DNA from: an uncultured Chlorobiaceae bacterium
GTDB lineage: Bacteria; Bacteroidota; Chlorobiia; Chlorobiales; Chlorobiaceae
Assembly: GCA_903940125.1 (NCBI GenBank)
Contig: CAJAJL010000059.1
Span: 58,935-122,934 of the forward strand
Direction: 5' to 3'
Length of the DNA: 64,000 bases
The notes under the pieces are model-generated. The model had not been told where the DNA came from, searched no databases, and was given only the letters and a program-made list of their open reading frames with translations. Numbering within the stretch: the first letter of the stretch is position 1; the number at the start of each line of letters is the position of its first letter. Below are positions 8,452 to 37,894 of the stretch, in pieces. The position numbers and the translations under genes were made by a program.

Positions 8452-9726
8452 ATGTTCGCCCTTGTCGACTGCAATAACTTCTACGCCTCCTGCGAGCGTG
8501 CTTTCAAGCCCGCTCTGCGCCTGCGCCCTGTCGTCGTGCTTTCAAACAATGACGGCTGCATCATCGCCCGCTCTGAAGAAGCCAAGACGCTCGGCATCCA
8601 GATGGGCACACCAGAGTTCAAATGCCGCTTGCTGCTAAAACAGCATGATGTTGCAGTCTTCTCCTCGAACTATGCCCTTTACGGCGATATGTCCTCACGG
8701 GTAATGGCAACGCTGGCCGCTCTTGCTCCTGAAATCGAAGTCTATTCCATCGATGAAGCGTTTCTGGATATGTCGAGCTTCAGCCGCTTCGACCTGCCAG
8801 ATTATGCCAGGCAAATGCGCCGCACGGTCCGCCTGCATACCGGCATTCCGGTCTGCGTCGGCATCGCGCCAACCAAAACGCTTGCCAAGATTGCCAACCG
8901 ACTGGCAAAAAAGAATCCGCACTATCAGGGCGTCTGCGTGCTCGCAACCGCTGAGGAGATCCAGGCCGCACTTCTGCACACCAAGGTCGAGGATATCTGG
9001 GGCATCGGGCGGCAGTGGAGCAAGCTGCTGCAGGCAAAGCGCATAGAGAGCGCCGCTGACTTGGCGGCAGCGCCTGCGGCATGGGTGCGCAAGCACCTGC
9101 ACGTTGTTGGCGCCAGGATACAAGCAGAGCTGCAGGGCAAATCATGCCTGCCGATGGAGCTGGTGCGGCCCGCAAAGCAAAGCATCTGCACATCGCGTTC
9201 TTTTGGTCGCAACGTCAGCACGCTGGCCGAGCTGCAGCAGGCAGTGGCAACATTCGCCAGCAAATGCGCTGTAAAGCTGCGCAAAGAGGATTCGCTTGCT
9301 TCCCTGCTGACGGTCTTCATTGCGACCAGCCCGTTCGATGAATCAAGCGACCGCTATTGGGGAACGCGCACGGCAGCCCTGCCGCATCCGACGCAGGATT
9401 CCATAGCAATCCTGAAGGCAGCAGAGACTATTCTTGACGGTATATTTCGTGATGGAAATGTCTATAAAAAGGCTGGCGTTATGGTGAGCGGCATTGTGCC
9501 AAGAGCATCATGCAGCACAACGCTTTCGCTCTTTGCGGAAGAAGCGCCAGCGGCAAATGCGCGCGATGCAAAGCTCATGCAGGCCATGGATGCCATCAAC
9601 CAGCGGTATGGCAGCGGCACGGTGCGGCTGGCAGCGGAGAATGCCGAAAGCTGGAAGCCGCATCAGGAGCGGCTATCGCCACGTTATAGCACGCGGTTGG
9701 ATGAGATTATTGAGGTGCGGGTGTGA
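8452..9726 (+). CDS. umuC: Y-family DNA polymerase V subunit UmuC
   Basis: MFALVDCNNFYASCE, SNNDGC, FSSNYALYGDMSSR, YSIDEAFL, C-terminal LSPRYST. Confidence 0.95.
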   Translation: MFALVDCNNFYASCERAFKPALRLRPVVVLSNNDGCIIARSEEAKTLGIQMGTPEFKCRLLLKQHDVAVFSSNYALYGDMSSRVMATLAALAPEIEVYSIDEAFLDMSSFSRFDLPDYARQMRRTVRLHTGIPVCVGIAPTKTLAKIANRLAKKNPHYQGVCVLATAEEIQAALLHTKVEDIWGIGRQWSKLLQAKRIESAADLAAAPAAWVRKHLHVVGARIQAELQGKSCLPMELVRPAKQSICTSRSFGRNVSTLAELQQAVATFASKCAVKLRKEDSLASLLTVFIATSPFDESSDRYWGTRTAALPHPTQDSIAILKAAETILDGIFRDGNVYKKAGVMVSGIVPRASCSTTLSLFAEEAPAANARDAKLMQAMDAINQRYGSGTVRLAAENAESWKPHQERLSPRYSTRLDEIIEVRV

Positions 9727-10596: not shown

Positions 10597-13338
10597 TTAA
10601 TGTCGTTTAATAGGGATGGTATAAGTGCACACATAATCGCCACTGCGTTTGTAGTTGGTGCAACCCCAGAATTTACCGTATGGCCCGCTACGCTCCACCA
10701 TCGCACCACCACAATTTAGGCAGATTGGTATTGATGCACCACAAACCGGGTTGACACAGGTACGAAATCGTCCATTACTCTTCATGAGACCTCCGCATTG
10801 CGGACAGGGCTTTTCCATATGCTTACAGTATGGAAAGCAACTACAGCCCACGAACGCGCCATATTGGCCAGATTTTGGTAAAAGGGCACCACGACCACAG
10901 TCAGGGCATACGACGTGAGGAATATCCGCACACATAAGTCCCTCTGCGATCTCGTCTTTACAAACAGGATAAGCCGAGTCAACATCAAGCAACTCTTGTA
11001 CGAAGGATGAAGCTTCCGTTGGGTTGTACACCAAGTAGACGCGGTGGCGTGCACGAGTAAGTGCAACATAGAAGAGCCGACGCTCCTCAGCCAGCGGATA
11101 AGATTCTTGTTTAGGAAGAAGCCATTCTAAAATTGGATCTGTCGGCTTTTCACTTGGAAAGCCATTTTTGCCTTGCCCAAGGCCGAGAATCACAACAAAG
11201 TCGGCCTCTTTGCCTTTAGCAGAGTGCACTGTCATAAATTCAATGGTCAGAGGAGGGTATTGCGACTTCAATCGACGTTTAGCTACGGGTTGAAGCCACT
11301 CTTTAATGGTGAAGTTGTACCTTCCCAGTACCAGGACAATAGACCCTTCTCTCGAGTTGTTACATCTTCTACTGACGATTGCATCGAGAGCCATGCGGAG
11401 ACCGTTTTCATCCCGAACAGCACGGATCATTGACAATGCAGGTTGATCAACATAAACCTTTGACTTAATAGTCTTAGTAATCTGCGCAGGATTTTTCAAG
11501 ACAAATTCGGACGAAACTTTGCCAATCATGTTGTTGAACCTGAAAGTCTGTTCGAGGGATGTGGTTGCGGTTGCACCGAAGTAGCTTGAAAAGTCTCGAG
11601 TGTAAGCAATGTCGCTGCCAGTGAACCTGTAGATCGACTGCCAATCATCACCAACAGCAAATAGCCCCGATTCTATGCCTTGCTGACCCAAAGCTTTGAG
11701 CAATCGCGCCCTTGATTTATTAATGTCCTGAAACTCGTCTACCAGTATCTGTATGTAAGGTGATTGAAAAGCTCCTGCCTCGACATAGTCGGACGCCTTT
11801 CGAATCATGTCAGCGAAATCGATTTGACCCGAGACTGAAAGTTCAGTCTGATAAGCATCAAGAATTGGTGTGAAAAGAGATAATAATAAACAGAGACGTG
11901 ATGAATCTATATCGGATTGTGCCTTTTTGTTTAGTTCAGACAACGAATAATCGGACTCTTTGAAGAGTTTTAAGAAATCAGATAGCAGAATTGCAAACTC
12001 ATTGACTTGTGATGAGGCGCGAAGCTCATCCAGCATCTCCAGGCTGGAACGAGGGATCAACTCAACACCATTAGCTTTTAAAGCTTCTGCAAGGCGGGAT
12101 TCTAACAACCCCTCTCGTTTCAGAAACGAATATGTTTCGATGAGATTAGTCCCGTGAAGTTTGTGGAGATCCCGCTTCCAGTCGATACCACTCAGGTATT
12201 TATTTTGGTCAAAATGCGAAGGAGGGTTACCCGACTTATCCAATGCAAAATGCTCAATGTAGACATCATAATCAGGCAAATAAAAGTCCGGCTTGTACTG
12301 CCTATAGTCAGGTCCTGCAGTGTCGACTTTGTAGGCATGCTCATATATGTAGGCTACGCTATTGGCGTTGAGGAAGTTAGCAATGACAATCTCTTCGAAG
12401 CTTTTGACAACTTCGTTCTTTAACGTTCTCAGTTCATTAATACTCACATATTCATTGTATTCCCTAATTGAACTGAAATCGAAGGGGTTCCTGTAAGTGA
12501 ATTTTTCACTACCACAGTAGCGAATAATCAGCTCTCGGTAGTCGCGGTCATTGCAGCACTTCTTCAGCTGCTCATCAATGAACTTTAAAAATACCTGATT
12601 GTCATTAACCATGGGATGGATATCAGGACGACGTCCCTCAACAGCCCCGATTATTTCGAGGCCAAGCGCATGGAACGTTTTGACAGTGGGTGAGCCCTTC
12701 ACCTCCAAGCTTTTGAGACGTGAGTCTTGACGTTCCTGCATCTCTTTGGCCGCTTTTTGCGCGTATGCTAGCATAAGCAACTCATGAGGCTTGGCTCTAT
12801 TTGATGCGACGAGATAGCCGGCTCGACCAATCATAGTACTTGTTTTTCCTGTGCCGGCTCCAGCAAGTACTAAGTTACAATCTTCATCAACCACGCACGA
12901 ACGACGCTGGGAGTTGGTTAAAGGCTGGCTCTCAATAGAGTCGAAGAATGACCCATATTCAACTAGCTCTGATAAAACAAAAGCATCATTGGCAGCTGCA
13001 ACCAACTCCTCAGACCTTGCCATGAATGTAACAAGGGCCTGCACCTTTTTAAGTTGCTCTTGAGATGCTGAATAACGCCAACCAAATATTTTTGTGGATT
13101 TAACGACATCTTTTGCGGATATCAAAAGACGAAGGCGCTGTGAGTTCCGAGCATATGACTTGCGTGACAGTAAGTCCTCTAACGCAGCCGAGACATCATC
13201 AAGGTGCTTAGCAATTGGAGCAATACGAGGGGATAAGCGCTTATTTGCAGAGTACCAAAGGAACACGGCACACGCGAGCAATATGAAAATGATGGGTATA
13301 AGCAACCCCGAGGATAGACCCAGGTTCAGTATATTCAC
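10597..13338 (-). CDS. helD: DNA helicase IV (HelD)/UvrD-family SF1 helicase with N-terminal hydrophobic helix and C-terminal topoisomerase-type Zn ribbons
   Basis: Walker A (AGAGTGKT), DEFQD, GDDWQSIYRF, TVHSAKGKE, EERRLFYVALTRAR, KPDFYL insert; CPDCG...GCS and CLNCG...GCTNY ribbons. Confidence 0.88.
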   Translation of the reverse strand: MNILNLGLSSGLLIPIIFILLACAVFLWYSANKRLSPRIAPIAKHLDDVSAALEDLLSRKSYARNSQRLRLLISAKDVVKSTKIFGWRYSASQEQLKKVQALVTFMARSEELVAAANDAFVLSELVEYGSFFDSIESQPLTNSQRRSCVVDEDCNLVLAGAGTGKTSTMIGRAGYLVASNRAKPHELLMLAYAQKAAKEMQERQDSRLKSLEVKGSPTVKTFHALGLEIIGAVEGRRPDIHPMVNDNQVFLKFIDEQLKKCCNDRDYRELIIRYCGSEKFTYRNPFDFSSIREYNEYVSINELRTLKNEVVKSFEEIVIANFLNANSVAYIYEHAYKVDTAGPDYRQYKPDFYLPDYDVYIEHFALDKSGNPPSHFDQNKYLSGIDWKRDLHKLHGTNLIETYSFLKREGLLESRLAEALKANGVELIPRSSLEMLDELRASSQVNEFAILLSDFLKLFKESDYSLSELNKKAQSDIDSSRLCLLLSLFTPILDAYQTELSVSGQIDFADMIRKASDYVEAGAFQSPYIQILVDEFQDINKSRARLLKALGQQGIESGLFAVGDDWQSIYRFTGSDIAYTRDFSSYFGATATTSLEQTFRFNNMIGKVSSEFVLKNPAQITKTIKSKVYVDQPALSMIRAVRDENGLRMALDAIVSRRCNNSREGSIVLVLGRYNFTIKEWLQPVAKRRLKSQYPPLTIEFMTVHSAKGKEADFVVILGLGQGKNGFPSEKPTDPILEWLLPKQESYPLAEERRLFYVALTRARHRVYLVYNPTEASSFVQELLDVDSAYPVCKDEIAEGLMCADIPHVVCPDCGRGALLPKSGQYGAFVGCSCFPYCKHMEKPCPQCGGLMKSNGRFRTCVNPVCGASIPICLNCGGAMVERSGPYGKFWGCTNYKRSGDYVCTYTIPIKRH

Positions 13339-16706: not shown

Positions 16707-17516
16707 TCAGTAATTCGATCTGGAACGATAAGGTTTTGGCTTGGGCAGGTCGAGTTTCAGTTGTTTGGCTGAAGCTGGCAGTTTCGGAAAAAAGTTAATG
16801 CCAGCCAATTTCTCCAATTCGTTGATGCTCAGTGTCTGCAGTTCTTCAGCGTCTTCATTTTTAACATAGTATGCAGCACCCCTGTTCTGTTTAGGATCAA
16901 ATACCAGTTTGTAAACATGTGTTGGAACCAAAACCCTGCCATTCAGTCGAGTGATATTGTTTCCCAGGTAGAGCGGTCCAGTAATGACATAGAGTTCGCC
17001 GGTATTGAGAGCAAGCGTTCTTATTGCAGACTCAATGCCTTCCCATACAATGGTGTTTAGTTTGTGGTTCTGGGGTATCATGTTGGCCAGGCTGAAGCAT
17101 TGCTGCCGTGCGCTTCTGTTTGGCATATCGGCGCTTGGTGCCATGTGCCCGCGATCGAAACCAGATCGGGCATAATCGCTCAATTCTGCTCTTTCATTGT
17201 AAGGGAGTTCACTTTCTGGATGAAAGGCTGCTCGTCCTTTCAATTCCTTTGCATCCAGGATACTTTCACGAGTAAGATGTTCAGCAGACCAGAGAGGAGT
17301 ACGAGATATCCCGGAGTGCATCACAGCGAAGTTATCATAACATAATTCACGGGCGCTTTTTGCAAGCGAGGCTTTTTGAATATCCGGAGCAACCCCGTTT
17401 AGGTACTGCGAAGGGCACGCCGTTGTTGCCGCAGATACAGTCTGAGCGGTTGATGCTATGAGCAACATGAGGAGGGCAACTATCCAGGAACCCCTCTGTT
17501 GTACGTATTTTTTCAT
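16707..17516 (-). CDS. Secreted DNA/RNA non-specific endonuclease (NucA/Serratia family)
   Basis: Signal peptide, GFDRGHMAP active site, FSLANMIPQ, WEGIE, VPTHVYK. Start reassigned to ATG at 17516. Confidence 0.9.
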   Translation of the reverse strand: MKKYVQQRGSWIVALLMLLIASTAQTVSAATTACPSQYLNGVAPDIQKASLAKSARELCYDNFAVMHSGISRTPLWSAEHLTRESILDAKELKGRAAFHPESELPYNERAELSDYARSGFDRGHMAPSADMPNRSARQQCFSLANMIPQNHKLNTIVWEGIESAIRTLALNTGELYVITGPLYLGNNITRLNGRVLVPTHVYKLVFDPKQNRGAAYYVKNEDAEELQTLSINELEKLAGINFFPKLPASAKQLKLDLPKPKPYRSRSNY

Positions 17517-17659
17517 GTCAGATTCTTTTGTTATGGTTTTTTTCAGTGACATCAAAAATACAAAAAACGTATCACATAGGGAGAGGTTCGTGGTGGTAAT
17601 CGCAAATTTCGGCAATAAATAAGCCTACAACCAGTTGTTTTCAGTGCTTTCACTCCTGC

Positions 17660-17790
17660 TTCATACAGCTAAAAAGGCAGCTCAGCAGCTTTGTACGCCA
17701 TGCTTTTGCTGTTGCATTGCCTGTAGGTTTACAGCGGGATTTTGCTCTTTGCAGCAGTGATTTCAGCGACTTCAGCAGCTGTAGCCCCGT
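17660..17790. repeat. Outlying copy of the GCAGC-rich repeat modules also present at 19760-19880
   Basis: Shares tacagct.aa.aggcagctcagcagctttg, gccatgcttttgctgttgc and gctctttgc.gcag with 19760-19880. Confidence 0.7.
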
Positions 17791-18089
17791 CTTGCGGCGA
17801 GAAGTAGACGTCCGTTGTGCCAATTAACTGGAGGCGCTCTGCATGGGCAGTAAGCGGCTTGTGCAGGTGGAGAAATGCAAATATAACGATGAAGTGCTTT
17901 TTCGTGAGGAATATTTAGAATGAAGTATGCGTTATAAAGTATTATTTTATAATTTAATCTCTTAGGTTGAATTCCCCATCGCTTTCGGGGAAATTATGCT
18001 AAACTTATAGCAACAACAGATACCCCGCTTCTTGGGGTGAGGTGGTTTCGTTTATTTTTTCATAACTTCAGTTTCACACTATTAAGGAG

Positions 18090-19214
18090 GTGGTTATGAT
18101 GGAAAGTATCGAAAATAATAAAAGAATTAATGCTGGTAGATTTTCAATATTATACGATCTTTATATTGATTTACTTGGCAGTTTGGTTCCAGGTCTTTTT
18201 AGTGTAATTATTGGCGGCACAATAATATTTTTAGCATTTGTATCTATTTACTCAAAATTGTTTAACCTCACAATTTTTTCAAATAAATTGATCAATGTAA
18301 GTTCAGTCATTTCAGCTTTAGCAAAATTATTAGGATCACTGCATTGGGAGTTATCCATTGTTACTGTTATTACTGCTTATATTGTAGGAACAATATTCTT
18401 TAGGCAAGACCCAAAAAAACCAGATGCAGCAAGCGCTTTATATGTGTGGATAAATTCAAAAAAAAAAGAACGCCCAGAATTAGCAGTCCAATCTACAAAA
18501 ACTTTACCACCTTATCTTGAACTTTTTGATCCGGAGGATAAACCAAAATTATTTGCGCGGTTGCGCTCCACTCTGCGCATTGGGAAATTTACTCGAGATT
18601 TAGGTTTAGATACACAATTCCCTTATCTCTATCTTCGTTGTTATTTGGCAGCAAGAGGTCTAACTCATTTATTAAGATTTATTCCTTGGTGCCCGTCTGA
18701 CAAAAATACACATAGCTTTAGGACAAAGATGTTTATCAATATCCTTAAAATTCGCCTTACGGGGCTTTTTCCAGATCTCTCAACAGATATTGTACGCAAT
18801 GAAGCGCATGTCAGGCTGGCTACATCAGTCTGGTATGCTTCATCAGCACTCATCCTCTTATCAATTTTTGTTATTACGTGCTTAATCTTAATTCTTTTTT
18901 CAATTACACATATAATATCTTTTTCTATACTTATATCACTTATCCCCTCATTAATTACGGTTATTTTTTGTGTATCTTTAAAAATTTATTTAAATAAATG
19001 TATTCATTATATGCGAGTACGAGAAGTGATTTATGTACTTGAAGCTGCAAACATGGCAGAAATAATGCGTGGTGAAAAACTTTTTAATGATCTAATTGAG
19101 AAAGATTATTCTAACAAATGTTTACAATGCGAAACAATTAAACTGAAAACAGTAAATTATCCTTTTACCACACAATCAGTGATAAAATCAAGGCTTAATG
19201 AAAAATTAATATAA
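18090..19214 (+). CDS. AT-rich hypothetical multi-pass membrane protein
   Basis: 374-aa ORF with two N-terminal and two C-terminal hydrophobic stretches; composition clearly more AT-rich than its flanks. Confidence 0.7.
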   Translation: MVMMESIENNKRINAGRFSILYDLYIDLLGSLVPGLFSVIIGGTIIFLAFVSIYSKLFNLTIFSNKLINVSSVISALAKLLGSLHWELSIVTVITAYIVGTIFFRQDPKKPDAASALYVWINSKKKERPELAVQSTKTLPPYLELFDPEDKPKLFARLRSTLRIGKFTRDLGLDTQFPYLYLRCYLAARGLTHLLRFIPWCPSDKNTHSFRTKMFINILKIRLTGLFPDLSTDIVRNEAHVRLATSVWYASSALILLSIFVITCLILILFSITHIISFSILISLIPSLITVIFCVSLKIYLNKCIHYMRVREVIYVLEAANMAEIMRGEKLFNDLIEKDYSNKCLQCETIKLKTVNYPFTTQSVIKSRLNEKLI

Positions 19215-19439
19215 ATGGACATTTAAGAAGTTGATTTTTTAATGGTTCATTAAACAATAGAGAAATATTCTTTTGTTATTCAATTAGTATTATTTTCTGT
19301 ATTCATCTATCAGTATGAACAGATTTGTCGGAGTGTTTACATACTTTTGCACCTATTATCCTGAAATTGTGTATCGGTGCTGGTAATATGGCCGTGAATC
19401 AGAAAAAATGAGTCAGTATCGAATGATCTTTACCCCAGC

Positions 19440-19880
19440 TCTTGGCCTGCCTTTGTCGCAAGCTTTTGCGATCATAAATCGCTGCACTACTCCCTGCTGG
19501 CTCGAATTGCGCAACATGCCGCATCACTCGTAAAGCAGGAGACGTCAGAGTACTTGCCTCTGCATTGCACACCAGCCATAAAGAACTTCATTTGCGCAGC
19601 AGTGCTTTCGATTGGCCAGAGCCGTCAGTCTGCATCCGCATTCAGCCGAGCCTCCTGCAGCAAGTCTGCATCCGCAGCCAGCTTCACCGCTTTCTTGTGC
19701 GATCACAAAGCGCAGCACTCCGCTCTTCGGGCTCTGTTTGCGCAGCCTCTCAGGCGGCCAGCTACAGCTGAAGAGGCAGCTCAGCAGCTTTGCCTGTAAG
19801 ACTGCAGCAGGGTTTCGCTCTTTGCGGCAGCGGCGACTACAGCAGCTTTGCGCGCCATGCTTTTGCTGTTGCTATTGTTG
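19440..19880. repeat. Degenerate units of the hairpin/GCAGC repeat family
   Basis: gcactactccctgctggctcgaattgcgcaacatgccgcatc (~19483) and gcactccgctcttcgggctctgtttgcgcagc (~19715) match the array consensus. Confidence 0.65.
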
Positions 19881-19941
19881 CTTGATTACGTCTTTCTTGG
19901 CAAACTTTACCGCAGGTTAATTCAATGTTCGGCAGGGTAGT

Positions 19942-20310
19942 TTAATCAAGTTTGTTCAATCGCTTCCAGACTGCTTCGCTAAGAACGCCAGAAGCTGTAT
20001 CCGCATCATAAGCAAAATATGATTTCTCATCTATGCCTTCTGATTTTGCACAATCTCTCATTAGAGCATCATTTCCTCTATACAATCCAAGCTCATTTCG
20101 GATGAACATGCCTAAGCCGAAATGAAGCATAATTAGATCATCTGCCTTGGTCTCTTGAATCAACTGTTTCTGGTTTTCATCAAGGGTCGAAATAATCCAG
20201 TCAACAGCCGAGCTTATCGTTTGTGGCCATTGTGATTCATTCAGCATAATTTGAATATTTTTGCATGAGTATAAATCTACTTCACGTAATATATGGAGCA
20301 TTACGAGCAA
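19942..20310 (-). CDS. Hypothetical protein (DUF6794-like)
   Basis: HFGLGMFIRNELGL motif and D.ASGVL...VW end; true start probably nearer MLNESQWP. Confidence 0.55.
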   Translation of the reverse strand: MLVMLHILREVDLYSCKNIQIMLNESQWPQTISSAVDWIISTLDENQKQLIQETKADDLIMLHFGLGMFIRNELGLYRGNDALMRDCAKSEGIDEKSYFAYDADTASGVLSEAVWKRLNKLD

Positions 20311-22005
20311 TATTCCTCAATACTTTGCCCTGTAGTCGTGGCAAGCAACAGCCAAGCGCAGCATTCCGCCCTGAAGGCTCCACTTGCGCAACATGCCGCA
20401 TCATTCGCACCGCCAGCCGAATTGCTTTTGTTTTGCCGCGCAGTATGCTTTCATGACCAAAACAGCGGAAGCCACCAGAACAGCCTGACCTGCCCCCGGC
20501 ACTCCGCTGCGCTTCGTGCCTCGCCGCCTCACGACGCGCGAAGAGCTAAAGCGCGACAATCGGCAGCGGCGTGCTGACGCCCGCGGGGGCAAAAGAAATC
20601 AGCTCGTTGCTCGTTTTGTGCCCGCTCTGCTCTGCAGCTCTGAATGAGAAGGCACTGCATTCCGCCCTTCGGGCTCTACTTGCGCAAAATGCCGCATTGC
20701 TTGCACGCCTGCCGCCAGAGCACTCCCAGCAGTCCGCATCCGCGCCCGGCTGATCAATTCGCATCGGCCTGCATTCGCAGTCAGATGAGGCTCAGCACTT
20801 GCCCTGCACCGCACTCCAGCCCTGGCGGGCTTCGTTTGTGCAGCAAGTGCTTTCGCCCGCTCGGGCACGGCAACAGGCTGCATCCGCAGCAGGTTGCCTT
20901 CTGTGCAGTAAGTCTGGATCGACATCCAACTCCATACCGCTCAGCATTACCAAGCGCTTCACTCCGCCCTTCGGGCTCCATTTGCGCAGCAATGCTTTCG
21001 CTCAGCAACGCAGCAGTCCGCATTCGCGCCCAGCTGTTCAATTCGCATCGGCCTGCATTCGCAGTCAGATGAGGATCAGCACTTGCCCTGCACCGCACTC
21101 CAGCCCTGGCGGGCTTCGTTTGTGCAGCAGTGCTTTCGCCCGTTGGTGCACGGCAACAGGCTGCATCCGCAGCAGGTTGCCTTCTGTACTGCAAGTCCAT
21201 ACCGATCAGCATTACCAGGCGCTGCACTCCGCCCTGCGGGCTCCATTTGCGCAGCAATGCTTTCGTGCAGCAACGCAACAGCCCGCATTCGCTGCCGGTT
21301 GCTCTCGTGCAGCAAGTCTGCAGCTGCATTTGCCGCTCTTCACTTCCATGTGCCGCACTCCGCCCTGCGGGCTCCTCTTGCACAGCATTGCCGCACCGCC
21401 AGACGCCAGAACACTTCCAGCAATCCGCATCCGCGCCCGACTGTACCACAATCGCAGCGGCCTGCATTCGCAGTCAGCTGCAGCTCAGCACTTGCCTTGC
21501 ACTGCACTCCAGCCCTGGCGGGCTTCGTTTGTGCAGCAAGTGCTTTCGCCCGTTGGTGCAAGGCAACAGGCTGCATCCGCAGCAGGTTGCCTTCTGTACT
21601 GCAAGTCTGGATCTACATCCAACTCCATACCGATCAGCATTACCAGGCGCTGCACTCCGCCCTGCGGGCTCCATTTGCGCAGCAATGCTTTCGCTCAGCA
21701 ACGCAACAGCCCGCATTCGCTGCCGGTTGCTCTCGTACAACAAGTCTGCAGCTGCATTTGCCGCTCTTTACTGCCAGGTGCCGCACACCAGCCCTGAAGG
21801 GCTCCATTTGCACAACATGCCGCATCGCCAGACGCCAGAGCACACGCAGCAGTCCGCATTCGCGCCCAGCTGTTCAATTCGCATCGGCCTGCATTCGCAG
21901 TCAGATTGCTTATTCCGGCAATATCGAACACTTTATCCGGTCAACTTCGAACACTGAACATCCACCATTCAGTCTGCAAGAAGTAATTTACAAAAGTGTT
22001 CGAAG

Positions 22006-22743
22006 TTAGCGCATATTTGCCATCAATTTTCGCATAGATTCTCCTTTCAAGGTTATTTGATATGCATTGTGCACCAACCGGTCACAGATAGCATCAGCCA
22101 GTGTTGGGTCGTCGATGAGCCGGTGCCACTCTGAGACCGGATACTGCGTACTTATGATGGTTGAACGCACGTTATGGCGATCTTCCATGATTTCAAGGAT
22201 ATCTCGTTTTGCGATATCGGTAAGTGGGCTCATGCCCCAATCGTCAATGATGAGCAGTTCAGTTCTCGATAGCTTTTCCAGCTGTTTCTTGTAAGAGCCA
22301 TCAGCCCTGCCGATACCCAGATCATGCAGGAGCCGTGAAAGCCGGACATAGCTCGTGCCTATTCCCGCCCGGCAGGCGGCTACGCCAAAGGCGCATGCCA
22401 GCCAGGTTTTACCGGCCCCCGTCGGGCCGGTAATGATGAGATTTCGATGATTTTTGATCCATTCATTGCGAGCCAGATCCATCACCATAGATTTCGCAAG
22501 TCCACGTTGTGGTGTCGTATGCAGCTCTTCGATGCAGGCACCAGGATAGCGCAGACGGGCCTGACGCAGTAACGTGGTGAGCTTGTGGTTTTCGCGCACG
22601 GTCTTTTCGTGTTGGACGAGCAGCAGCAGCCGTTCGGCAAAGTCCATTTCGGAGGCCATCGGAGTCCTGATCTGCATCTCAAGAGCATCTGCCATACCAT
22701 GGAGCTTGAGGGCGGCCAATTGCTCCTTAACGTTCTGTAGCAT
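22006..22743 (-). CDS. istB: IS21 helper AAA+ ATPase IstB
   Basis: GPTGAGKT, LLIIDDWG, DAICDRLVH. Start moved to ATG at 22743 (RBS aggaggag; overlaps the istA end). Confidence 0.95.
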   Translation of the reverse strand: MLQNVKEQLAALKLHGMADALEMQIRTPMASEMDFAERLLLLVQHEKTVRENHKLTTLLRQARLRYPGACIEELHTTPQRGLAKSMVMDLARNEWIKNHRNLIITGPTGAGKTWLACAFGVAACRAGIGTSYVRLSRLLHDLGIGRADGSYKKQLEKLSRTELLIIDDWGMSPLTDIAKRDILEIMEDRHNVRSTIISTQYPVSEWHRLIDDPTLADAICDRLVHNAYQITLKGESMRKLMANMR

Positions 22744-24283
22744 AGTAATCTCCTCCTCTGATGTTTTGGTGAGCAATGCCATCAACAGATGCATACTGGT
22801 CGAATAAGGTCACTGTGTCGAGCCCCTTGGCCATCATGGACTTGATGCTCTTATAGTTGGTCAGATTGAGTTCCAGAGCCTTCAGTGCGGCTCGTTCCAG
22901 GCGCTCGGGAGAGTAGGTTTTTGCCAGCCGGATGACACCGAGACAACTGCGAAAGCCATGCTCCGGATGGACCTTGCTGAGCATGATGCGATCCATGAGT
23001 GCTGCGGTGTTCGGGCCGATTTTGGATCCCCATGACCGAATCCGCTCCGGACTCCATTCCCTGTAGAAACGGTGTTCGTGAGGCATGTGCGCGGCATCGG
23101 TAACATACTGGCCGAGCTTGAGGGTTCTGATGTGCTGAGCAACAACCTCGCCTTCATGATAGACCGAGACTACATGGCCGGTGTACTTGATATCGACCTG
23201 CTTGCCAATCAGGCGAAACGGCACGCTGTAGAAGCTTTTGTCTACGGAAATATGGTAATCGATATGCACCTTTGCTTTTTTCCAGTAGCCGATGGTGAAG
23301 CGTTCTTTGGGCAACGGGGCCAGCCGATGCTGCTCCAACTCCATAAACAACTCTTTGCGGCTTTTGCAATACTGGTACATCAGGCGGCTGTTGAGTGCTT
23401 CGAGCTCTTGGGCAATGGCAGCATTGAGCTCTTCAAGACTAAAAAACCGCCGGTTCCTCAGAGGAGCCAGAATACGTCGCTGTACTTGGAGTACCCCAGT
23501 TTCGACCTTTGCCTTATCCCTCGGCTTACGAACCCGTGCAGGGAGCACTGCCACCGAATAATGACGAGCAAGATCAGCGAAAGTCGGATTGATTTCCGGG
23601 TCGTAGTAACAGGCATGCGATACGCCACTTTTCAGGTTATCGATTACCAGAAGCTGTGGGCATCCGCCGAAATACTCAAACGCCTTAACGGTCGCAGTGG
23701 CAAAGTCTTCAGCTTTTTGGCTTGAGACGGCACAGGCAAACGTATAGGAGGTGCCGCCGAGCACCGCGACATAGAGCTCCGGCGTCATCAGTTCGCCGGT
23801 TTCAGGATTGATCCACGAAGGCTTGTCGCCGGAAAAGTCGATGAAAAGCTTTTCGCCCGGCGTGTGCGTCAGACGCATGGTTGCCTTGTCCTGCATCTCC
23901 CATTCGTTGAGCATCTCATAGAAACGGGTCTTTTTGTACCCGTCAGGATGTTGTTGCTGATACTCCTCAAACAACAGTTGGCGGGTGATGTGTGTGCCTG
24001 AGCGCTTGAGTTCCTCGACAAGGCCCTGTATGTCAGGTCCCGGTCGCAGATCACGGATTTTCGGAACAGGTTGCAGCCGCTTTGTTAATGCAGAGTCTGG
24101 CATAGCTGCAAGGGCTTCATATTCAAGACCAAGCGCCTCGATTTTTTTTACATAACCCTGTACTGTTGATACCGACAGGTTGCAGGCTCCGGCGATGGCC
24201 CGCAGACTTAAATGCTTGTTCAGATGAAGCCGGGCGATTTCATGAATTGTTCTCATAGTTTTTCTTCTGCCTTGTTGTTGCAT
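22727..24283 (-). CDS. istA: IS21 DDE transposase IstA
   Basis: FIDFSG, VIDNLKSGV, PRDKAKVETGV, IDYHISVDKSFYSVP. Start at 24283 or 24256. Confidence 0.95.
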   Translation of the reverse strand: MQQQGRRKTMRTIHEIARLHLNKHLSLRAIAGACNLSVSTVQGYVKKIEALGLEYEALAAMPDSALTKRLQPVPKIRDLRPGPDIQGLVEELKRSGTHITRQLLFEEYQQQHPDGYKKTRFYEMLNEWEMQDKATMRLTHTPGEKLFIDFSGDKPSWINPETGELMTPELYVAVLGGTSYTFACAVSSQKAEDFATATVKAFEYFGGCPQLLVIDNLKSGVSHACYYDPEINPTFADLARHYSVAVLPARVRKPRDKAKVETGVLQVQRRILAPLRNRRFFSLEELNAAIAQELEALNSRLMYQYCKSRKELFMELEQHRLAPLPKERFTIGYWKKAKVHIDYHISVDKSFYSVPFRLIGKQVDIKYTGHVVSVYHEGEVVAQHIRTLKLGQYVTDAAHMPHEHRFYREWSPERIRSWGSKIGPNTAALMDRIMLSKVHPEHGFRSCLGVIRLAKTYSPERLERAALKALELNLTNYKSIKSMMAKGLDTVTLFDQYASVDGIAHQNIRGGDYYATER

Positions 24284-25335
24284 AGCCTTCCGTTTTGGTT
24301 CTAAAAAAACGATCAGGCTACAGGATACGTCAACCTGCAGAAGAATGATGAATGGTTTTCCGGAGACTTCGAACACCTTTTCCACTCAGGGTAAAAAAGT
24401 GTTCGATCTTATGCGGAATTACTGTTCGACTTTTTCCGGAATTAGTGTTCGAAGTTTAGCGAAGTTTTTGTTCGAGGTTAGCCGGAATATGCAGTCAGAT
24501 GAAGCTCAGCACTTGCCCTGCACCGCACTCCAGCCCTGGCGGGCTTCGTTTGTGCAGCAAGTGCTTTCGCCCGCTGGTGCACGGCAACAGGCTGCATCCG
24601 CAGCAGGTTGCCTTCTATGCAGTAAGTCTGGAGCTACATCCAACTCCATACCGATCAGCATTACCAGGCGCTGCACTCCGCCCTGCGGGCTCCATTTGCG
24701 CAGCAATGCTTTCGCTCAACAACGCAACAGCCCGCATTCGCTGCCGGTTGCTCTCTTGCAGCAAGTCTGCATTCGCATTCAGCTGCATTTGCCGCTCTTC
24801 ACTGCCAAGTGCCGCACACCAGCCCTGAAGGGCTTCGTTTGCACAACACTCCGCACCGCCAGACGCCAGAACACTTCCAGCAATCCGCATCCGCGCCCGA
24901 CTGTACCACAATCGCAGCGGCCTGCATTCGCAGTCAGCTGCATTTACCACTCTTCACCGCCAGAGCACACGCAGCAGTCCGCATTCGCGCCCAGCTGTTC
25001 AATTCGCCAGCAGGTTGTCTTCTATGCAGTAAGTCTGTATCTGCATCCAACTCCATACCGATCAGCATTACCAGGCGCTGCACTCCGCCCTGAAGGGCTT
25101 CGTTTGCACAAAAGTGCTTTCGCTGCTAAGCTTGTCAGCTCCGCTACAGCTCTCGCTACGCTGAAAGAGGCTCATCTCATCCAACAGCCTGCATTCGCAG
25201 CCAGCTGCATATTGCCAGCGCCGTGCCCGCATTGCGCTTGCTCTGATCTTGCCGCCGCCTGCCTTTGCTGGACCGCCTTCCAGCGCCTGCTTCGATTGCA
25301 GAAATCTACTTCGAGAAACAGCGGCTCACGAAGAC

Positions 25336-25420
25336 GACTTTGAGAAACACCAGCGAAAAAAGAAGTAAAGTCTGGGGAAGATTTTGTCCACTCACCCACC
25401 CCTCCAAAGATCTCGGAAGA
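25336..25420. repeat. Direct-repeat module, second copy at ~26818-26900
   Basis: Both copies read actttSagWaacaccagcgaa...ggaagattttgtccacYcRcccacccctccaaa...aagagctg. Confidence 0.8.
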
Positions 25421-25589
25421 GCTGAAATTCAAACAGCCCTTTAAGAAGAGAGATCTGAGGCGGGTACGCATTTTTATGTCTGCGCGCCTGCAGAGCTTGC
25501 TTAGCGTGTCAACTGACCTTGGCAGTGCTGGCGTTCAGAAGAGGATTGGCGGCAGAACGGGCATTGGCAGCTTGCTTGGCGGCGTGCGG

Positions 25590-26310
25590 CTTTGCTTTGG
25601 CGGAAAAGCGGAACATTGGCTGTTTGTATACACTAGCGGGAGGTCAGGGCAGTGGCGGCGGTCGATGCATTGGCGGGAGGGCGGCTGGTTTACCTGTTTG
25701 TCTGCCTACGGGGCGTGAGAACGGACATTGGTAGTGCTATCGCGCGGAAGAGGATTGCGTGACAACTGACCTTTTACAATCTATGTCGTCCAGCGCCTGG
25801 GGTAACTCATCACTCCATCACAGAGACCAGTGGCCAGGACTAACGACGAACTTTAACACTGCGCGCATTCGCTTGCTGACTTGGTAACTGACATTGGCAA
25901 ATGCTGTCATGAAGAGCTTTGGCGGAAGAGCGGACATTGGCAACAATTAAATATGGCGCTTCGCGCATTAATGTGGGCGGGCCACCACAGAAGTGATTAA
26001 TTTTATAGCCCCCTGTATGCACTTCTGGGTGGCCCTTCGTGCAGGAGTACCTGCATCTTGCCAGCAGGTTTGTCACAATATTTGCAAGCAGGAGTTTGGG
26101 CAAATATGGCGCCAAACCCTTGCCACAATCAACTCAGCGATAAGCCTGCGGCATGAAGATCGCTAAAGAGCCCGACGCGGGTACACATCCGGCTCTTTGC
26201 GTCAAGAGCAGCCGGCTTATGAGTACAACGCCCGCTGCGGCGTGTCCACTCCTTCGGTGCTTGGCGGTGCTGTCGGAAGAGCTTTGGCGTGAGAACTTGG
26301 CATTGGCAGC
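25590..26310. repeat. Four dispersed ~25-30 bp repeats
   Basis: gctttggcggaaaagcggaacattgg (~25596), ggcgtgagaacggacattgg (~25712), gctttggcggaagagcggacattgg (~25916), gctttggcgtgagaacttggcattgg (~26281). Confidence 0.6.
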
Positions 26311-26362
26311 AAGAGAGCGTGGGAGAGGAAAGAAAGCGGAAGCTCTGCAAAGAGACTATTAG

Positions 26363-26840
26363 AAACACCAGCAAAAAGCCCTACAGCTCGAAGTCAACTT
26401 TCAGAAACACCAGCAAGAAAAATTGCAGCTCGGAATCAACTTTCAGTAACACCAGCAAGAAAAAACTGCAGCTCGGAATCAACTTTCAGAAACACCAGCA
26501 AGAAAAATTGCAGCTCGAAGTCAACTTTCAGTAACACCAGCAAGAAAAACTGCAGCTCGGAATCAACTTTCAGTAACACCAGCAAAAAAAACTGCAGCTC
26601 GAAGTCAACTTTCAGTAACACCAGCAAAAAAAACTGCAGCTCGAAGTCAACTTTCAGTAACACCAGCAAGAAAAAACTGCAGCTCGGAATCAACTTTCAG
26701 TAACACCAGCAAGAAAAACTCCATCTCGGAATCAACTTTCAGTAACACCAGCAAGAATAACTGCATCTCGGAATCAACTTTCAGAAACACCAGCAGGAAA
26801 AAGCTGCATCTCGGAATCAACTTTCAGTAACACCAGCGAA
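26363..26840. repeat. Tandem array of 11 x 42-43 bp units plus a partial twelfth
   Basis: Consensus WAACACCAGCAAGAAAAACTGCAGCTCGRARTCAACTTTCAG. Eight 42-bp and three 43-bp units account exactly for 26363-26827. No spacers. Confidence 0.97.
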
Positions 26841-27021
26841 GAAAGATTAGGGAAGATTTTGTCCACCCGCCCACCCCTCCAAAAAACGTGTAAGAGCTGG
26901 TTAAGATTCCGTTGTCACTCCAAAACAAGACCTCAGCTGGACACTCAACGGCATAAAGGAAAATTTAGGCTGTAATGGCTTGGTGAAATAAATCGGTCTG
27001 TATCGGTAAGATCAGGGCGAT

Positions 27022-27192
27022 TCAAAAGTGGGTATGAAAAGCATCTTCAAGCTCGTCCGAGGTAAATTGATATCCCTGCCGATTAATAAAAGCCATCTTT
27101 GTTTCTACATCTTCCATCCTGTTCACCGCTTCATTAAACGTATCATCACTTTTCATCCTGTCGAGAAATGCATTTGCATCTTGATGTGACAT
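27022..27192 (-). CDS. Nif11-like leader-peptide family protein without an evident core peptide
   Basis: MSHQDANAFLDRMKSDDTFNEAV...INRQGYQFTSDELE matches the Nif11 pattern (A..F...MK.D..F...GY.FT..EL). No GG motif; 56 aa. Confidence 0.65.
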   Translation of the reverse strand: MSHQDANAFLDRMKSDDTFNEAVNRMEDVETKMAFINRQGYQFTSDELEDAFHTHF

Positions 27193-27473
27193 GGCTTTTC
27201 GATTGTAGGGGTTGGGGGGGGAACTGATTTTTTCTTTTAACCAGTTGTACAATTACAGTACTATAACACATTATTCTTGCAATGTCATGATCAGGGAAAA
27301 GAAAAGAGAGTCTTTATGGCGGTTTATGATTGGGGTTTATCAGGGTTAAGTGCTTTTCAGGTAGTCCGATGTGGGCGGCAAGTGTGCGTCGGAGCGGCTG
27401 AGAAAGAACTCTTATGGCAGAATAGAGGTCGCTTTCGCGACGTAGTATCACTTCGTGATGGGGAGTTTCCGTT

Positions 27474-27830
27474 TTATCCGATTATAACAAGGCCATCCCG
27501 TTGTCTTGGTTCGGGTTCTGGGGTGCGTTTTGCGTAGCGGGCCGGGCGGGTGCGCTCAAGGTACCAGGCGCTCGCGTGCCAGTCCTTTTTTGAGGCTTTG
27601 GTTATAGTATTAAGGTGCTGCAGCTCGCATTTTGCCTCTGCGGTTGGCAGTGCGTCGTAAAGCTGGCGCTGCAGGGTGTCCTGCTCCTCCTGGGCGTGCT
27701 CTTTGCCCTCTTTGCACCATTCGTAATAGGTGGATCGGCTTATTCCGGCAGCGGTGCAGGCTATCTCTTTTGTCATCCCCTGGCCGATGAAGCCAAGCAG
27801 CTTTTTTATGTGATATCCATCCAGTTTCAT
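27474..27830 (-). CDS. Phage terminase small subunit-like HTH protein
   Basis: GMTKEIACTAAGISRSTYYEW HTH followed by AEAKCE...W HASAWYLERTRPARY, a pattern typical of the terS-like family. Confidence 0.62.
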   Translation of the reverse strand: MKLDGYHIKKLLGFIGQGMTKEIACTAAGISRSTYYEWCKEGKEHAQEEQDTLQRQLYDALPTAEAKCELQHLNTITKASKKDWHASAWYLERTRPARYAKRTPEPEPRQRDGLVIIG

Positions 27831-35495: not shown

Positions 35496-36650
35496 TTATT
35501 CCCCCATATCTAAGATAATGGCATCAGCCGCTGATCGTCGGCTTGCATTGACAACGTGTGCATAGATCATCGTTGTGTCAATTTTGGCGTGCCCCAGCAT
35601 CTCGCTCAGGGTTTTGATGTTTGTATTTGCCAGAAGCTGCAGGGTGGCAAAGGTGTGGCGCATGGTATGGAAGGTTATATATTTCTGAATACCGGCAGCC
35701 TGTATCCACTCTTTAAAAAACTTTCTGTAGGAATTGCAATGGATCTCCATCAGTCTTGGGAAAATAATTCCGGTTTGCGTTTCTGCATCCTTGTAAGCGG
35801 GTGATTTCTCCGCTGGTTCATCCTTTGTGGCGGCAATCTTTATTGCCTGTGGAGAGATGGGCAGGTAGTTGACTGCCTTGGTTTTTCGCTGCCTGAAATG
35901 AACGCAGGGTCCGGTGGGTTCAAAAACTACATCTTCCCATGTCAAGTGTGCAATATCTGAAATACGCATACCGGTAAGGGCTGCAAATAGAGCAGCTCGC
36001 TTGATCATTGGATTGCCGCAAGGCGTTTCAGCGAGTATGTTTAATTCTTCCTGTGTCAGGTAGATAATTTTTGTCCGTTGCTGTGGTATTCCTCTTACCT
36101 GCTCGGTAAGCTTGACTTTCATCATATCATTGCGGTAGGCATGGTTCAGAGCTGTACGAATGTATGAAAAATCAGTGTTGGCAGTATTGTTAGCATTATG
36201 TTCAATCAGGTGTGTCCGGAAATTTTCAAGCAGTTGCTTGTCGATTTCTGAAAAATACAAAGGCTGGTCAGGTTTAAGCTTCAAAAATGCCTGTAATTTC
36301 TTCAGCGAGTTTTTCCACTTGCTTTTTGTCTTGCTTGTAATATTTCTTTCCTCGGTATGCTTTTTAAAAAATTCTATAAAGTCAGCAGGCTTGTTCGTTA
36401 TCAAAAAGTCATAGCGACCTGCATGAAGCTGTAACTGTGTTTTCGCAAGGATAGCGTTGACCAGTGTCATGGTCTCCTTATTCTCCAGTCTTGCCTCTTT
36501 CGTTTTTGGGTTGACATGCAGTGACATGCCAAGATTGACAAACCGGGTAAGCTTGCCGGTTTCAGGGTGTGGTGCCGGAGGGTAAATATCAAGGCGTAAT
36601 GAATAACGGGTTCCGTTATCGATCAGGCGTTTTCTGAGTGTCGCTTTCAT
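35496..36650 (-). CDS. Tyrosine recombinase/integrase (copy 1)
   Basis: TGMRISD (R), QRKTK (K), FHTMRH (HxxR), LGH, MIY; start at ATG 36650 (MKATLRKRL). Confidence 0.93.
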   Translation of the reverse strand: MKATLRKRLIDNGTRYSLRLDIYPPAPHPETGKLTRFVNLGMSLHVNPKTKEARLENKETMTLVNAILAKTQLQLHAGRYDFLITNKPADFIEFFKKHTEERNITSKTKSKWKNSLKKLQAFLKLKPDQPLYFSEIDKQLLENFRTHLIEHNANNTANTDFSYIRTALNHAYRNDMMKVKLTEQVRGIPQQRTKIIYLTQEELNILAETPCGNPMIKRAALFAALTGMRISDIAHLTWEDVVFEPTGPCVHFRQRKTKAVNYLPISPQAIKIAATKDEPAEKSPAYKDAETQTGIIFPRLMEIHCNSYRKFFKEWIQAAGIQKYITFHTMRHTFATLQLLANTNIKTLSEMLGHAKIDTTMIYAHVVNASRRSAADAIILDMGE

Positions 36651-36654
36651 AATT

Positions 36655-37842
36655 CTACTCTCCCCCCATAGGAATGGTAATGACATCAGCTGCAGCCCGT
36701 CGGCTTGCATTGACGACGTGGGCGTAAATCATCGTGTTCTCAATTTTGGTATGCCCCAGCATCTCGCTCAGGGTTTTGATGTTTGTATTTGCCAAGAGCT
36801 GCAGGGTGGCGAATGTGTGGCGCATCGTATGGAAGGTTACATTTTTCTTGATACCCGCATCCCGAATCCAATTTTTAAAATGAGGTTGTTTGCATTGGGT
36901 ATGGAGTTCTATCAGTCTTGGGAAAACAAATCCAGTTCGCTTCTCTGCAGGTATGTCAGCTGGTTTGTCAGTTTGGTTGCCGGTAGGGTTGCCGGAAGGG
37001 TTGTCGGGTACATCTGTTGCGGCAGCTATTTTTATTGCCTGTCGAGAGACCGGCAAGTAGTTGAGTGCCTTGGTTTTGCGCTGCCTGAAATGAACGCAGG
37101 GTCCGGTTGGATCAAAAACAACATCTTCCCACTTCAAGTGCGCAACATCTGAAATTCGCATACCGGTTAGGGCAGCAAAAAGGGCGGCTCGTTTAATCAG
37201 CGGCTTTCCACAAGGCGTTTTAACAAGTTTGTTTAATTCTTCCTTGGTCAGGTATATAATTTTAGTCCGTTGTGGTTGTATTGCTTTGACCTGCTCGGTA
37301 ATCTTGACTGTCATCATATCATTGCGATAGGCATGGATTAAGGCTGTACGGATGTTTGAGAAATCACTTCCGGCAGTATTAATCGCAAAATTTTCAAGCA
37401 GGTAGGTTCGGAAATTTTCAAGGAGATTCTTGTCGATTTCGGAAAAATACAAAGGCTGATCTGGCTTAAGCTTTAAGAATGCCTGTAATTTTCTTAGCGA
37501 TACGTTCCATTTTTTTTTTGTCGTGAGTGAAATATTTCTTTCCAGGGTATGCTTTTTATAAAATTCTATAAAGTCAGCAGGCTTGTTCGTTATCAAAAAA
37601 TCATAGCGACCAGCATGCAGTTGCAGTTGTGTCTTGGTAAGGGTAGCATTTGCCAGTGCCATAGTCTCTTTATTCTGCAGTCTTGCCTCTTTCGTTTTTG
37701 GGTCGACATGCAGTAACATGCCAAGATTGACAAACCGGGTAAGTCTGCCGGTTTCAGGGTGTGGTGCAGGGGGGTAGATATCAAGGCGTAAAGAGTACCG
37801 GGTTCCGTTGTCGATCAGGCGTTTTCTGAGTGTCGCTTTCAT
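36655..37842 (-). CDS. Tyrosine recombinase/integrase (copy 2, close paralogue)
   Basis: Same catalytic set and an identical first 32 aa; start at ATG 37842. Confidence 0.93.
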   Translation of the reverse strand: MKATLRKRLIDNGTRYSLRLDIYPPAPHPETGRLTRFVNLGMLLHVDPKTKEARLQNKETMALANATLTKTQLQLHAGRYDFLITNKPADFIEFYKKHTLERNISLTTKKKWNVSLRKLQAFLKLKPDQPLYFSEIDKNLLENFRTYLLENFAINTAGSDFSNIRTALIHAYRNDMMTVKITEQVKAIQPQRTKIIYLTKEELNKLVKTPCGKPLIKRAALFAALTGMRISDVAHLKWEDVVFDPTGPCVHFRQRKTKALNYLPVSRQAIKIAAATDVPDNPSGNPTGNQTDKPADIPAEKRTGFVFPRLIELHTQCKQPHFKNWIRDAGIKKNVTFHTMRHTFATLQLLANTNIKTLSEMLGHTKIENTMIYAHVVNASRRAAADVITIPMGGE

Positions 37843-37894
37843 GGTATGATGGGTAAAATTGTAAAGCCAAGTCGTTTTATCATCGTGTTTTAAA

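Follow-up and report, generated by a model that had tools for sequence, protein, structure and literature searches.

Kilobases of noncoding tandem DNA are rarely kept in bacterial genomes. The BOX elements of Streptococcus pneumoniae (boxA-boxB(n)-boxC) are modular, hairpin-forming and intergenic, with one module in tandem in variable number, and the NIMEs of Neisseria meningitidis consist of dRS3/NTS hairpins with repeated RS blocks of 50-150 bp between them. ToxI-type units, near-identical and ~34-45 nt long, stand directly before a ToxN-type gene, and the smallest attC sites known to us measure ~55 nt. NIMEs cluster around variable genes, lie rarely within genes and are thought to shape the recombination of incoming DNA (PMC11893778). 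REP palindromes carry a GTAG or CGTC tag at one end (PMC3733652), and BIMEs hold REPs in alternating orientation, at >100 copies per genome (PMC2817692). Here we describe an array of co-oriented hairpin units in the genome of an uncultured Chlorobiaceae bacterium (assembly GCA_903940125.1, referred to as G000), located in a stretch of 64,000 nt of contig CAJAJL010000059.1 (positions 58,935 to 122,934), which we call the window and whose own numbering is used below. Each unit carries an imperfect hairpin, H1. We propose, with moderate confidence, that the array is a lineage-specific mosaic hairpin repeat whose satellite-like evolution proceeds by unequal crossing-over and which marks a variable locus prone to recombination.

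Set beside the described repeat families, the array appears to fit none of those compared and to resemble most the mosaic intergenic repeats of other bacteria. With NIMEs it has in common short GC-rich hairpins every ~100-150 bp, intervening segments that are themselves repeated in families, and a position around variable genes and rarely inside genes; its sequence is unrelated, however, and it runs head to tail over a long distance, with a higher-order period, at one locus of this genome and not at hundreds. BOX elements share the modular build with a variable tandem module and the hairpin-forming, intergenic character, but are scattered, consist of a few modules only and have an unrelated sequence, and we know of no BOX arrays of 13-17 units with a higher-order period. 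Like REPs and BIMEs, the array combines imperfect palindromes of a few tens of bases with linkers in mosaic intergenic clusters in which subtypes coexist, and the mid and inner stems of H1 (~37 nt) lie within the 20-40 nt of an imperfect REP palindrome. The copies described here are in contrast all co-oriented, 17 of them at one locus on the + strand; neither GTAG nor CGTC flanks the stems in an alignment of 73 H1 sequences, and a search of G000 for RAYT proteins (PF01797) returned a single IS200/IS605-type tnpA, located on a contig of 2066 bp, and a fragment, neither of them with repeats close by. A REP/BIME-RAYT system was rejected on these grounds, and the array units match no known REP/MITE family; a match of this kind is what an earlier note on this DNA had named among the outcomes that would speak against its account of the array. 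With eukaryotic alpha satellites the array shares monomers of ~130-170 bp that have diverged by 20-25%, a multi-monomer block whose copies are more alike (85-94% here), and the amplification of different blocks in close lineages, although it spans 2-3 kb and not megabases, has no centromere context and is built from hairpin modules. The earlier note had called this organisation unusual for a bacterium, which we judge to be fair. On the best reading, the array would work like NIME, BIME or BOX clusters, but as a polar tandem with a higher-order period. An NTS/Ssn system in the strict sense was also rejected, since the SRM pattern HGTCWY..RNCYNB (PMC11893778) occurs 0 times in the window (8 times in the whole genome) and no single-domain GIY-YIG Ssn nuclease was found, the lone PF01541 match lying in a 618-aa frame that is presumably UvrC.

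Anatomy of a noncoding array

A pattern scan for GCCCT-N2-5-GGGCT on the + strand returned 13 occurrences between 20664 and 25099, where shuffled sequence gives 0.39 by chance (Table 1). The starts are spaced by 155, 147, 137, 128, 131, 150, 147, 132, 2742, 147, 142 and 265 bp, in exact agreement with the 13 hairpins and spacings listed in the earlier note, and the 2742-bp spacing falls to 148 bp once an IS21-family insertion sequence (IS) of 2587 bp, with the terminal inverted repeats TGCTTATTCCGGC / GCCGGAATATGCA, and one 7-bp target duplication are taken out. Cut at the hairpins, the array yields units of 128-155 bp that belong to three types, A, B and C, with identities of 94%, 88% and 85% within the respective type and of 76-79% between types. 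They are arranged in the order C A B' A B C A B C A[IS] B C (recombinant) B. The A-B-C block thus measures ~428 bp and is repeated ~3.5 times, with 299-nt block copies that are 87-93% identical (repeat family D1), so that the three unit types and the ~430-bp A-B-C super-period of the earlier note both hold. In descriptive terms the array is a satellite-type higher-order repeat, its block copies being far more alike than its monomers. Some of its units are recombinant: B' (20926) is a B/C hybrid, and in the 265-bp 'unit' at 24782-25046 recombinant pieces of C and A come after a C unit.

Searched with a covariance model built on the hairpin (R1), the window yielded 17 copies on the + strand, none on the - strand and none outside 19458-25130; the copy number is uncertain since the source is a short-read metagenome-assembled genome (MAG). 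Four of these are degenerate units upstream that flank a DUF6794 gene, and the array therefore starts ~1.2 kb to the left of the start given in the earlier note. The leader motif TGTAGTCGTGGC, which precedes the last degenerate unit, also opens arrays in three other genomes (L019, L042, L049). It should be noted that all genomes compared here are short-read MAGs with provisional copy numbers, that several of the compared contigs end within repeats, and that comparisons among kin genomes are not independent.

Table 1. Positions of the array, its embedded genes and its flanking features in the window
Feature	Position	Strand	Remarks
DNA/RNA non-specific endonuclease gene	16707..17615	-	conserved left anchor of array
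AT-rich cargo gene, 374 aa	18090..19214	+	GC 0.32-0.34; no Pfam match; bracketed by repeat modules
Three degenerate H1 units	19458-19534, 19540-19618, 19689-19764 (19458..19764)	+	left of DUF6794 gene
DUF6794 cargo gene, 122 aa	19942..20310	-	between repeat units
Array leader motif TGTAGTCGTGGC, then degenerate H1 unit	20331..20411	+	
Left main array	20624..21906	+	C1 A1 B1 (B/C hybrid) A2 B2 C2 A3 B3 C3 and first 8 nt of A4; nine H1
13 hairpin starts	20664, 20819, 20966, 21103, 21231, 21362, 21512, 21659, 21791, 24533, 24680, 24822, 25087	+	
Left target-site duplication	21900..21906		gtcagat, 7 bp
IS21-family element, 2587 bp	21907..24493	-	interrupts unit A4; from sequence ends and Pfam domains
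istB	22006-22794		within IS21 element; IstB_IS21, 8.9e-65
istA	22727-24385		within IS21 element; rve and Mu-transpos_C_2 domains
Right target-site duplication	24494..24500		gtcagat, 7 bp
Right main array	24494..25210	+	remainder of A4, B4, C4, recombinant C/A piece (24935-25046), B5 and decaying tail; four H1
Further noncoding modules, cattggc/cttggc repeats	25211..26360	+	collinear with G097 and L096
42-bp tandem repeat, 11.4 copies	26361..26844	+	in same ~7-kb noncoding tract
Nif11-domain small gene	27022..27198	-	right neighbour of noncoding tract
terS-like gene	27474..27830	-	last gene of neighbouring phage-like element

That the array is a product of short-read MAG assembly, or the remains of a degenerate protein-coding repeat gene, is extremely unlikely. 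An artefact would be in keeping with a draft of 129 contigs and with related contigs that often end inside repeats. However, the longest exact repeat inside the array is just 92 bp, and a metagenome scan with the A-type junction recovered 11 independent contigs with multi-unit arrays at the same unit spacing (117-154 bp), which together make gross mis-assembly unlikely; the unit size also recurs in independent MAGs, and the ends of the IS are clean, with target duplication. For a coding repeat speak the three + frames, all open for ~900 bp within the array. Open frames are expected from the composition, since TAG, TAA and TGA are nearly absent from sequence rich in GCWGC and TGCA: 2 kb of array contain 0 TAG, 4 TAA and 11 TGA triplets, and between 20624 and 25250 there are 43 GCWGC and 51 TGCA sites, 6.6-fold and 4.4-fold above the genome rate. 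In codon-usage log-odds, trained on the long open reading frames (ORFs) of the genome, the array ORFs score -0.06 to -0.09 versus +0.09 to +0.22 for real genes. We therefore rejected a protein-coding repeat on the basis of these negative scores, of zero Pfam matches for the array ORFs and of unit lengths that, as the earlier note had stated, are not multiples of three and break the reading frame; the array DNA is noncoding. A CRISPR locus was rejected as well, in line with the earlier note, for the 'spacers' are ~100 nt long and themselves repeated in three families, and not unique sequences of 30-40 nt. CpG transitions (GCGC to GCAC or GTGC) account for many of the differences between units, and genes for a C5-methyltransferase and Vsr lie near the start of the window, so that methylation-driven mutation of the repeats is conceivable.

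Conservation of the hairpin

Alignment across genomes resolved the unit into modules, H1 being a ~58-nt imperfect hairpin that is followed by one or two shorter ones. H1 (profile positions 2-60) comprises an outer stem specific to the type, a 4-bp GCGC/GCGC mid stem and a GCCC-loop-GGGC tip, and reaches ~58 nt only with the outer stem. Its asymmetric internal loop, YGCACWCC(A) / TYCRTTT, is conserved, while the 3-4 nt of the tip loop vary freely (TGC, TTC, TGGC, TGAA, TAAA and others). H2 (positions ~74-118) has the form GGCAAC-AGCCTGCATCCGCAGCCG-GTTGC, an inverted repeat around a SYGCATYCGC core of which 17 copies were counted, and H3 (positions ~119-145) is a shorter relative with the same core. 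Matches obtained by nhmmer with the 145-position unit profile start or end at the module borders (~60, 74, 96-101, 134), and the units of 101, 144 and 184 bp in the related genome G097 correspond to H1+H3, H1+H2+H3 and H1+H2+H2+H3.

Over 73 copies of H1, 92.6% of the cells of mid and inner stems are paired, compared to 26-71% when the partners are slid. The mid stem GCGC/GCGC has changed to GCAC/GTGC in type A and to GTGC/GCAC in type C by compensatory transitions, and the outer stems differ wholly in sequence between subtypes with complementarity kept (AGCACTTGC/GCAAGTGCT in this array, GCACATGC/GCATGTGC in the metagenome contig L096, CCCTGCA/TGCAGGG in G006, CACTGCA/TGCAGTG in G097). Moreover, the 5' and 3' flanks of a unit pair better with each other than swapped flanks do (23/2000 permutations). 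The H1 hairpin is conserved through compensatory changes.

Compensatory changes are also what would be expected if the array were transcribed from the + strand into a long precursor and cut into small structured RNAs, or if it acted as a multivalent RNA sponge or decoy to which a hairpin-binding protein is drawn. Co-orientation of the units is strict, the + strand shows a strong bias of C over G (C 36%, G 24%), and the type A hairpin with its TCGTTTGT tail makes a weak terminator-like site on this strand, of which the region holds four, the number expected from shuffles. We nevertheless consider such an RNA distinctly unlikely. No sigma-70-like promoter was found in or just before the units, and whole units and whole blocks fold no better than shuffled sequence (z of -2.05 to +0.94). 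Wobble-only pairs of the G-U type are favoured on neither strand (20 on +, 15 on -). The folding energies and the missing wobble preference let the constraint look like one on a DNA palindrome, or on either single strand, and not on one RNA strand. The freely variable sequence and length of the loop, the interruption of arrays by IS21 and by cargo genes of either strand, and the differences in copy number and unit composition between populations whose flanks are 89-95% identical argue in the same direction. Rfam (including Chlorobi-1, STAXI and ribozymes) gave no match at gathering score in the whole window, and no relevant family surfaced when E-values of up to 10 were admitted for 17500-27300 and of up to 5 for the G097 array. 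A Cas6 or ToxN-like processing enzyme is absent from the annotated neighbours, and the processed small RNA, antitoxin, sponge or Cas6 decoy considered in the earlier note found no evidence. The tandem direct repetition of a structured noncoding unit recalls ToxI of type III toxin-antitoxin systems; an antitoxin array of this type was rejected because the units measure 128-155 nt and are heterogeneous, and a ToxN-like gene is lacking among the neighbours.

GC-rich stems followed by T-containing tails (TCCATTTG, TTCGTTTG), four copies of which are terminator-like, could alternatively be transcription terminators, RNA 3'-end stabilisers or insulators that have accumulated at the ends of accessory genes. 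This seems very unlikely to us, since the tails are poor in T and 13-17 consecutive terminators would have no obvious use. Several dispersed copies do lie 22-130 nt after a co-oriented gene. However, across ~50 clusters with neighbours called by codon score, the left, upstream neighbour was co-oriented in 27 cases and opposed in 25 (right neighbour: 25 opposed, 20 co-oriented), and with no bias in orientation H1 is not systematically the 3' end of a gene; in G020, four copies even stand upstream of opposite-strand Nif11-leader genes. The C-rich, G-poor linkers might resemble Rho-loading sequences, which would again fit termination. With regard to a polarity by replication strand, GC skew of the flanks was negative at 23/34 loci, which are not independent of each other. 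Boxes of the lambda nut type (boxA/boxB, CGCTCTTTA ... GCCCTGAAGGGC, in type C units) were considered and dismissed, the boxA-like word being found in one subtype only and the loop varying freely.

A conserved site with variable content

In G000 (2.98 Mb, 129 contigs, 98.6% complete) a whole-genome search located the H1 family at one locus only. Within the genus, 24/78 species genomes contain matches at E ≤ 0.001, and at E ≤ 1e-4 there are 20/78 genus genomes (G000 included) versus 0/60 genomes from nine other genera of the order. When 185,579 species genomes were scanned for the exact pattern, 32 stretches were recovered: 30 belong to 'uncultured Chlorobiaceae' MAGs, from boreal lakes and one bog lake, and two are short contigs binned elsewhere; the phage and plasmid collections left the array family unmatched. 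The best reading of this distribution is that of a new hairpin repeat family restricted to one genus. Within every contig all H1 copies lie on one strand, even across 5-15 kb of genes. A distant H1 subtype, GCGCCGCACTCCGCTTCGCTCCGTTTGCGCAGC, with its tip reduced to GC-TTC-GC, heads C-rich mosaic tracts (L045 = G100:C63, L046 = G016:C53, L052-L080) which hold other recurrent hairpin modules, e.g. TCGAAAGCGGACTACCGCCTTCGA, at many intergenic sites of other Chlorobium MAGs, so that the window shows only part of the size and diversity of the family.

The array occupies a conserved site. The endonuclease gene is followed by a + strand array in G000, G097, G006, G073, G094 and L096, that is in at least five species and one metagenome contig. 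G000 and G097 are collinear from a UvrD-like helicase gene through the endonuclease gene, array, noncoding repeats and Nif11-domain gene to the terS-like gene; their genes are 75-94% identical and their arrays 65-77%, in no fixed register, with 17 units at periods of 101, 144, 184 and 244 bp at the orthologous site of G097. L096, whose flanks are 89-95% identical to the window, has six units of two A-like subtypes with a 270-bp period; it is without the IS21 element and the AT-rich 374-aa gene and otherwise collinear with the window. The content between the units varies likewise. Beside the endonuclease gene, G000, G097, G006, G073 and G094 carry differing single cargo genes between units: the DUF6794 gene of G000 has its closest relatives elsewhere at ≤53% identity, a HEPN-like (NTase_sub_bind) gene in G097 is inserted at the H1/H2 border and flanked by an 11-bp direct repeat, GTGCCTTCGCT, and pentapeptide, Sel1, PDZ, transposase and PEP-CTERM genes stand between units of G073 and G094. 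Each genome examined has its own array length, higher-order period and embedded cargo; the turnover of these is rapid, and the array tolerates insertions. Among the functions proposed in the earlier note, the 'recombination platform' alone gains some support, from single cargo genes that stand between units of the same locus and differ from species to species.

Single genes of deviant GC or diverse function between co-oriented units on the same platform in five species invite a comparison with integrons. The list of cargo includes, in addition to the DUF6794, AT-rich 374-aa, NTase_sub_bind, pentapeptide, Sel1, PDZ and PEP-CTERM genes, a class-D beta-lactamase-like gene and a decarboxylase gene. 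In one alternative the units are therefore crossover sites of a site-specific cassette exchange, integron-like or as attachment (att) sites for the two tandem integrases of the neighbouring phage-like element (35496-38061), which are tyrosine recombinases of the Phage_integrase/SAM_5 type; cargo would be captured and lost between hairpins, and cargo-free runs of units would be empty cassettes. Co-oriented imperfect hairpin sites that are alike within one chromosome, unrelated accessory genes standing singly between them and an adjoining fixed platform are indeed shared with integrons and with clusters of attC sites lacking integrases (CALIN). H2 forms an inverted repeat (GCAAC-N18-GTTGC), the arrays open with a conserved leader motif (TGTARTCGTGGC), the direct repeat GTGCCTTCGCT brackets the G097 cargo at the H1/H2 border, and G000 contains integron-integrase remnants (C51:4429-4698).

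We regard cassette exchange of this kind as unlikely. No integrase adjoins the array, the remnants lie on other contigs (C51, C77) with unrelated flanks, and the integron integrase profile TIGR02249 gave zero matches above cut-off in G000. R''/R' box pairs (RYYYAAC ... GTTRRRY, 40-140 nt apart) number 0 on both strands of 17600-27000 with the IS removed, even with one letter freed, and H2 with ~30 nt is smaller than the smallest attC sites known to us. Cargo genes occur in both orientations, most units have no cargo between them, and homology to the unit profile ends at several positions (~52-62, 70, 83, 95-103, 132-137) and not at one. A pair of empty and occupied sites could not be reconstructed, for in G020:C11 and G029:C126 homology simply stops after the units. 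We rejected integron attC sites for want of an adjacent IntI and of R''/R' boxes and because many units fall on each cargo gene, and an att site of the phage-like element because its integrase-proximal end and the array have no repeat in common. Decidedly improbable, too, is a variant in which co-oriented H1 and H2 would be the recognition and crossover sites of an integrase-independent or as yet unrecognised cassette-capture platform next to the endonuclease gene in a freshwater Chlorobium clade, with cargo-free runs as a reservoir of sites. The remnant on C51 is the C-terminal part of an integron-type integrase (129 bits, last 90 profile positions, one in-frame TGA) and adjoins a second IS21 copy at the contig end, with no attC-like repeats seen around it.

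Evolution of the array and its neighbourhood

In a tree of H1 sequences, subtypes of different species group together, and the same-type copies of the window form tight groups. The grouping shows H1 subtypes that are, as judged from the tree, older than the species. Since subtypes are common to several species, the monomers diverged first, and since same-type copies within this genome are 85-94% alike, the block was re-amplified recently; the succession of divergence and block re-amplification put forward in the earlier note is thereby corroborated. We therefore return to the proposal of a mosaic hairpin repeat with satellite-like evolution. The array would grow, shrink and be homogenised through unequal crossing-over and gene conversion between units, here presumably as a 428-bp A-B-C block. 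This would correspond to the 'library' behaviour of satellites, in which each lineage has recently amplified a different selection of old, diverged monomer types. The hairpins may persist by virtue of a property at the DNA level, either recognition by a putative protein or self-templated palindrome repair, and not by an RNA product. As a consequence, the array could act as a recombination-prone, homology-rich landing pad for the gain and loss of accessory genes, as is thought for NIME, BIME and BOX clusters.

Several observations weigh against this proposal. In G000 the family is confined to a single locus, unlike the dispersed REP, BOX and NIME families. Unequal crossing-over explains co-orientation within the array, but explains it less obviously across 5-15 kb of cargo genes. 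The C-rich + strand hints at a strand-specific process. Finally, the conserved internal loop together with the compensatory stem changes indicates that some factor may recognise the hairpin, and no partner protein was found.

Several species of an uncultured lake Chlorobium lineage of ecological importance thus keep a noncoding tract of ~7 kb at a single chromosomal site, and the main component of this tract seems to evolve as eukaryotic satellites do, with a library of diverged monomers from which different blocks are amplified per population. Compensatory conservation of a hairpin without RAYT, Ssn or IntI implies that either a further partner exists or palindromes persist by recombination alone. 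Assemblies break at the array. It marks the site at which the accessory genes of these genomes vary most, and is thus useful as a marker of populations and in the search for gene flow.

Other repeats share the noncoding tract. The 42-bp repeat ends in a tail module, 'gattttgtccac..cccctccaaa', whose second copy lies at 26850-26890; the first copy, at 25379-25420, stands 1.5 kb further left behind one lone repeat unit (25336-25420 / 26850-26900). In G097 a relative with a period of 44-46 bp amounts to just 2.6 copies (L042 14055-14178), which makes this array another that varies between species; the 42-bp repeat might be a feature of the TerS/pac type or an RNA array of the neighbouring phage-like element. 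Irregular (g)cattggc(g) / gcttggcgg repeats extend over ~0.9 kb of the window (25476-26350), their position being kept in L042 (13300-13600) and L096 (7550-7700). In the same tract of G097 there is a 126-bp tandem repeat (2.5 copies, 96% identity, L042 14417-14736) of which no counterpart was seen in the window.

The UvrD-like helicase to the left (913 aa, 10597-13338, - strand) carries two C-terminal zinc ribbons of the topoisomerase type, and models of defence systems return generic UvrD/GajB-like matches only. Its DNA is 93.6% identical to the G097 orthologue, compared to 70-82% for adjacent genes, which could reflect recent exchange or strong constraint.

A further locus with H1 units, L018 (G020:C12:42000-61900), contains seven or eight genes for Nif11-type leader peptides (e.g. 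3040-3279, 5944-6174, 8489-8731, 9157-9447 and 18269-18508, all on the - strand). Behind leaders with a terminal AAGG come short, hypervariable cores that often end in Cys (LFFLNHSIFKRNC, TVLHWHIRYC, KSKSLFWGMSYSC, TPVYC). With an adjoining HlyD-type gene, the locus looks like a library of precursors of ribosomally synthesised and post-translationally modified peptides or of bacteriocins. Several of the leader genes have a C-rich, (CCCCAA)n-like 5' leader (~8740, 9460, 17880-17900), and four of them have an H1 unit ~95 nt upstream on the opposite strand.

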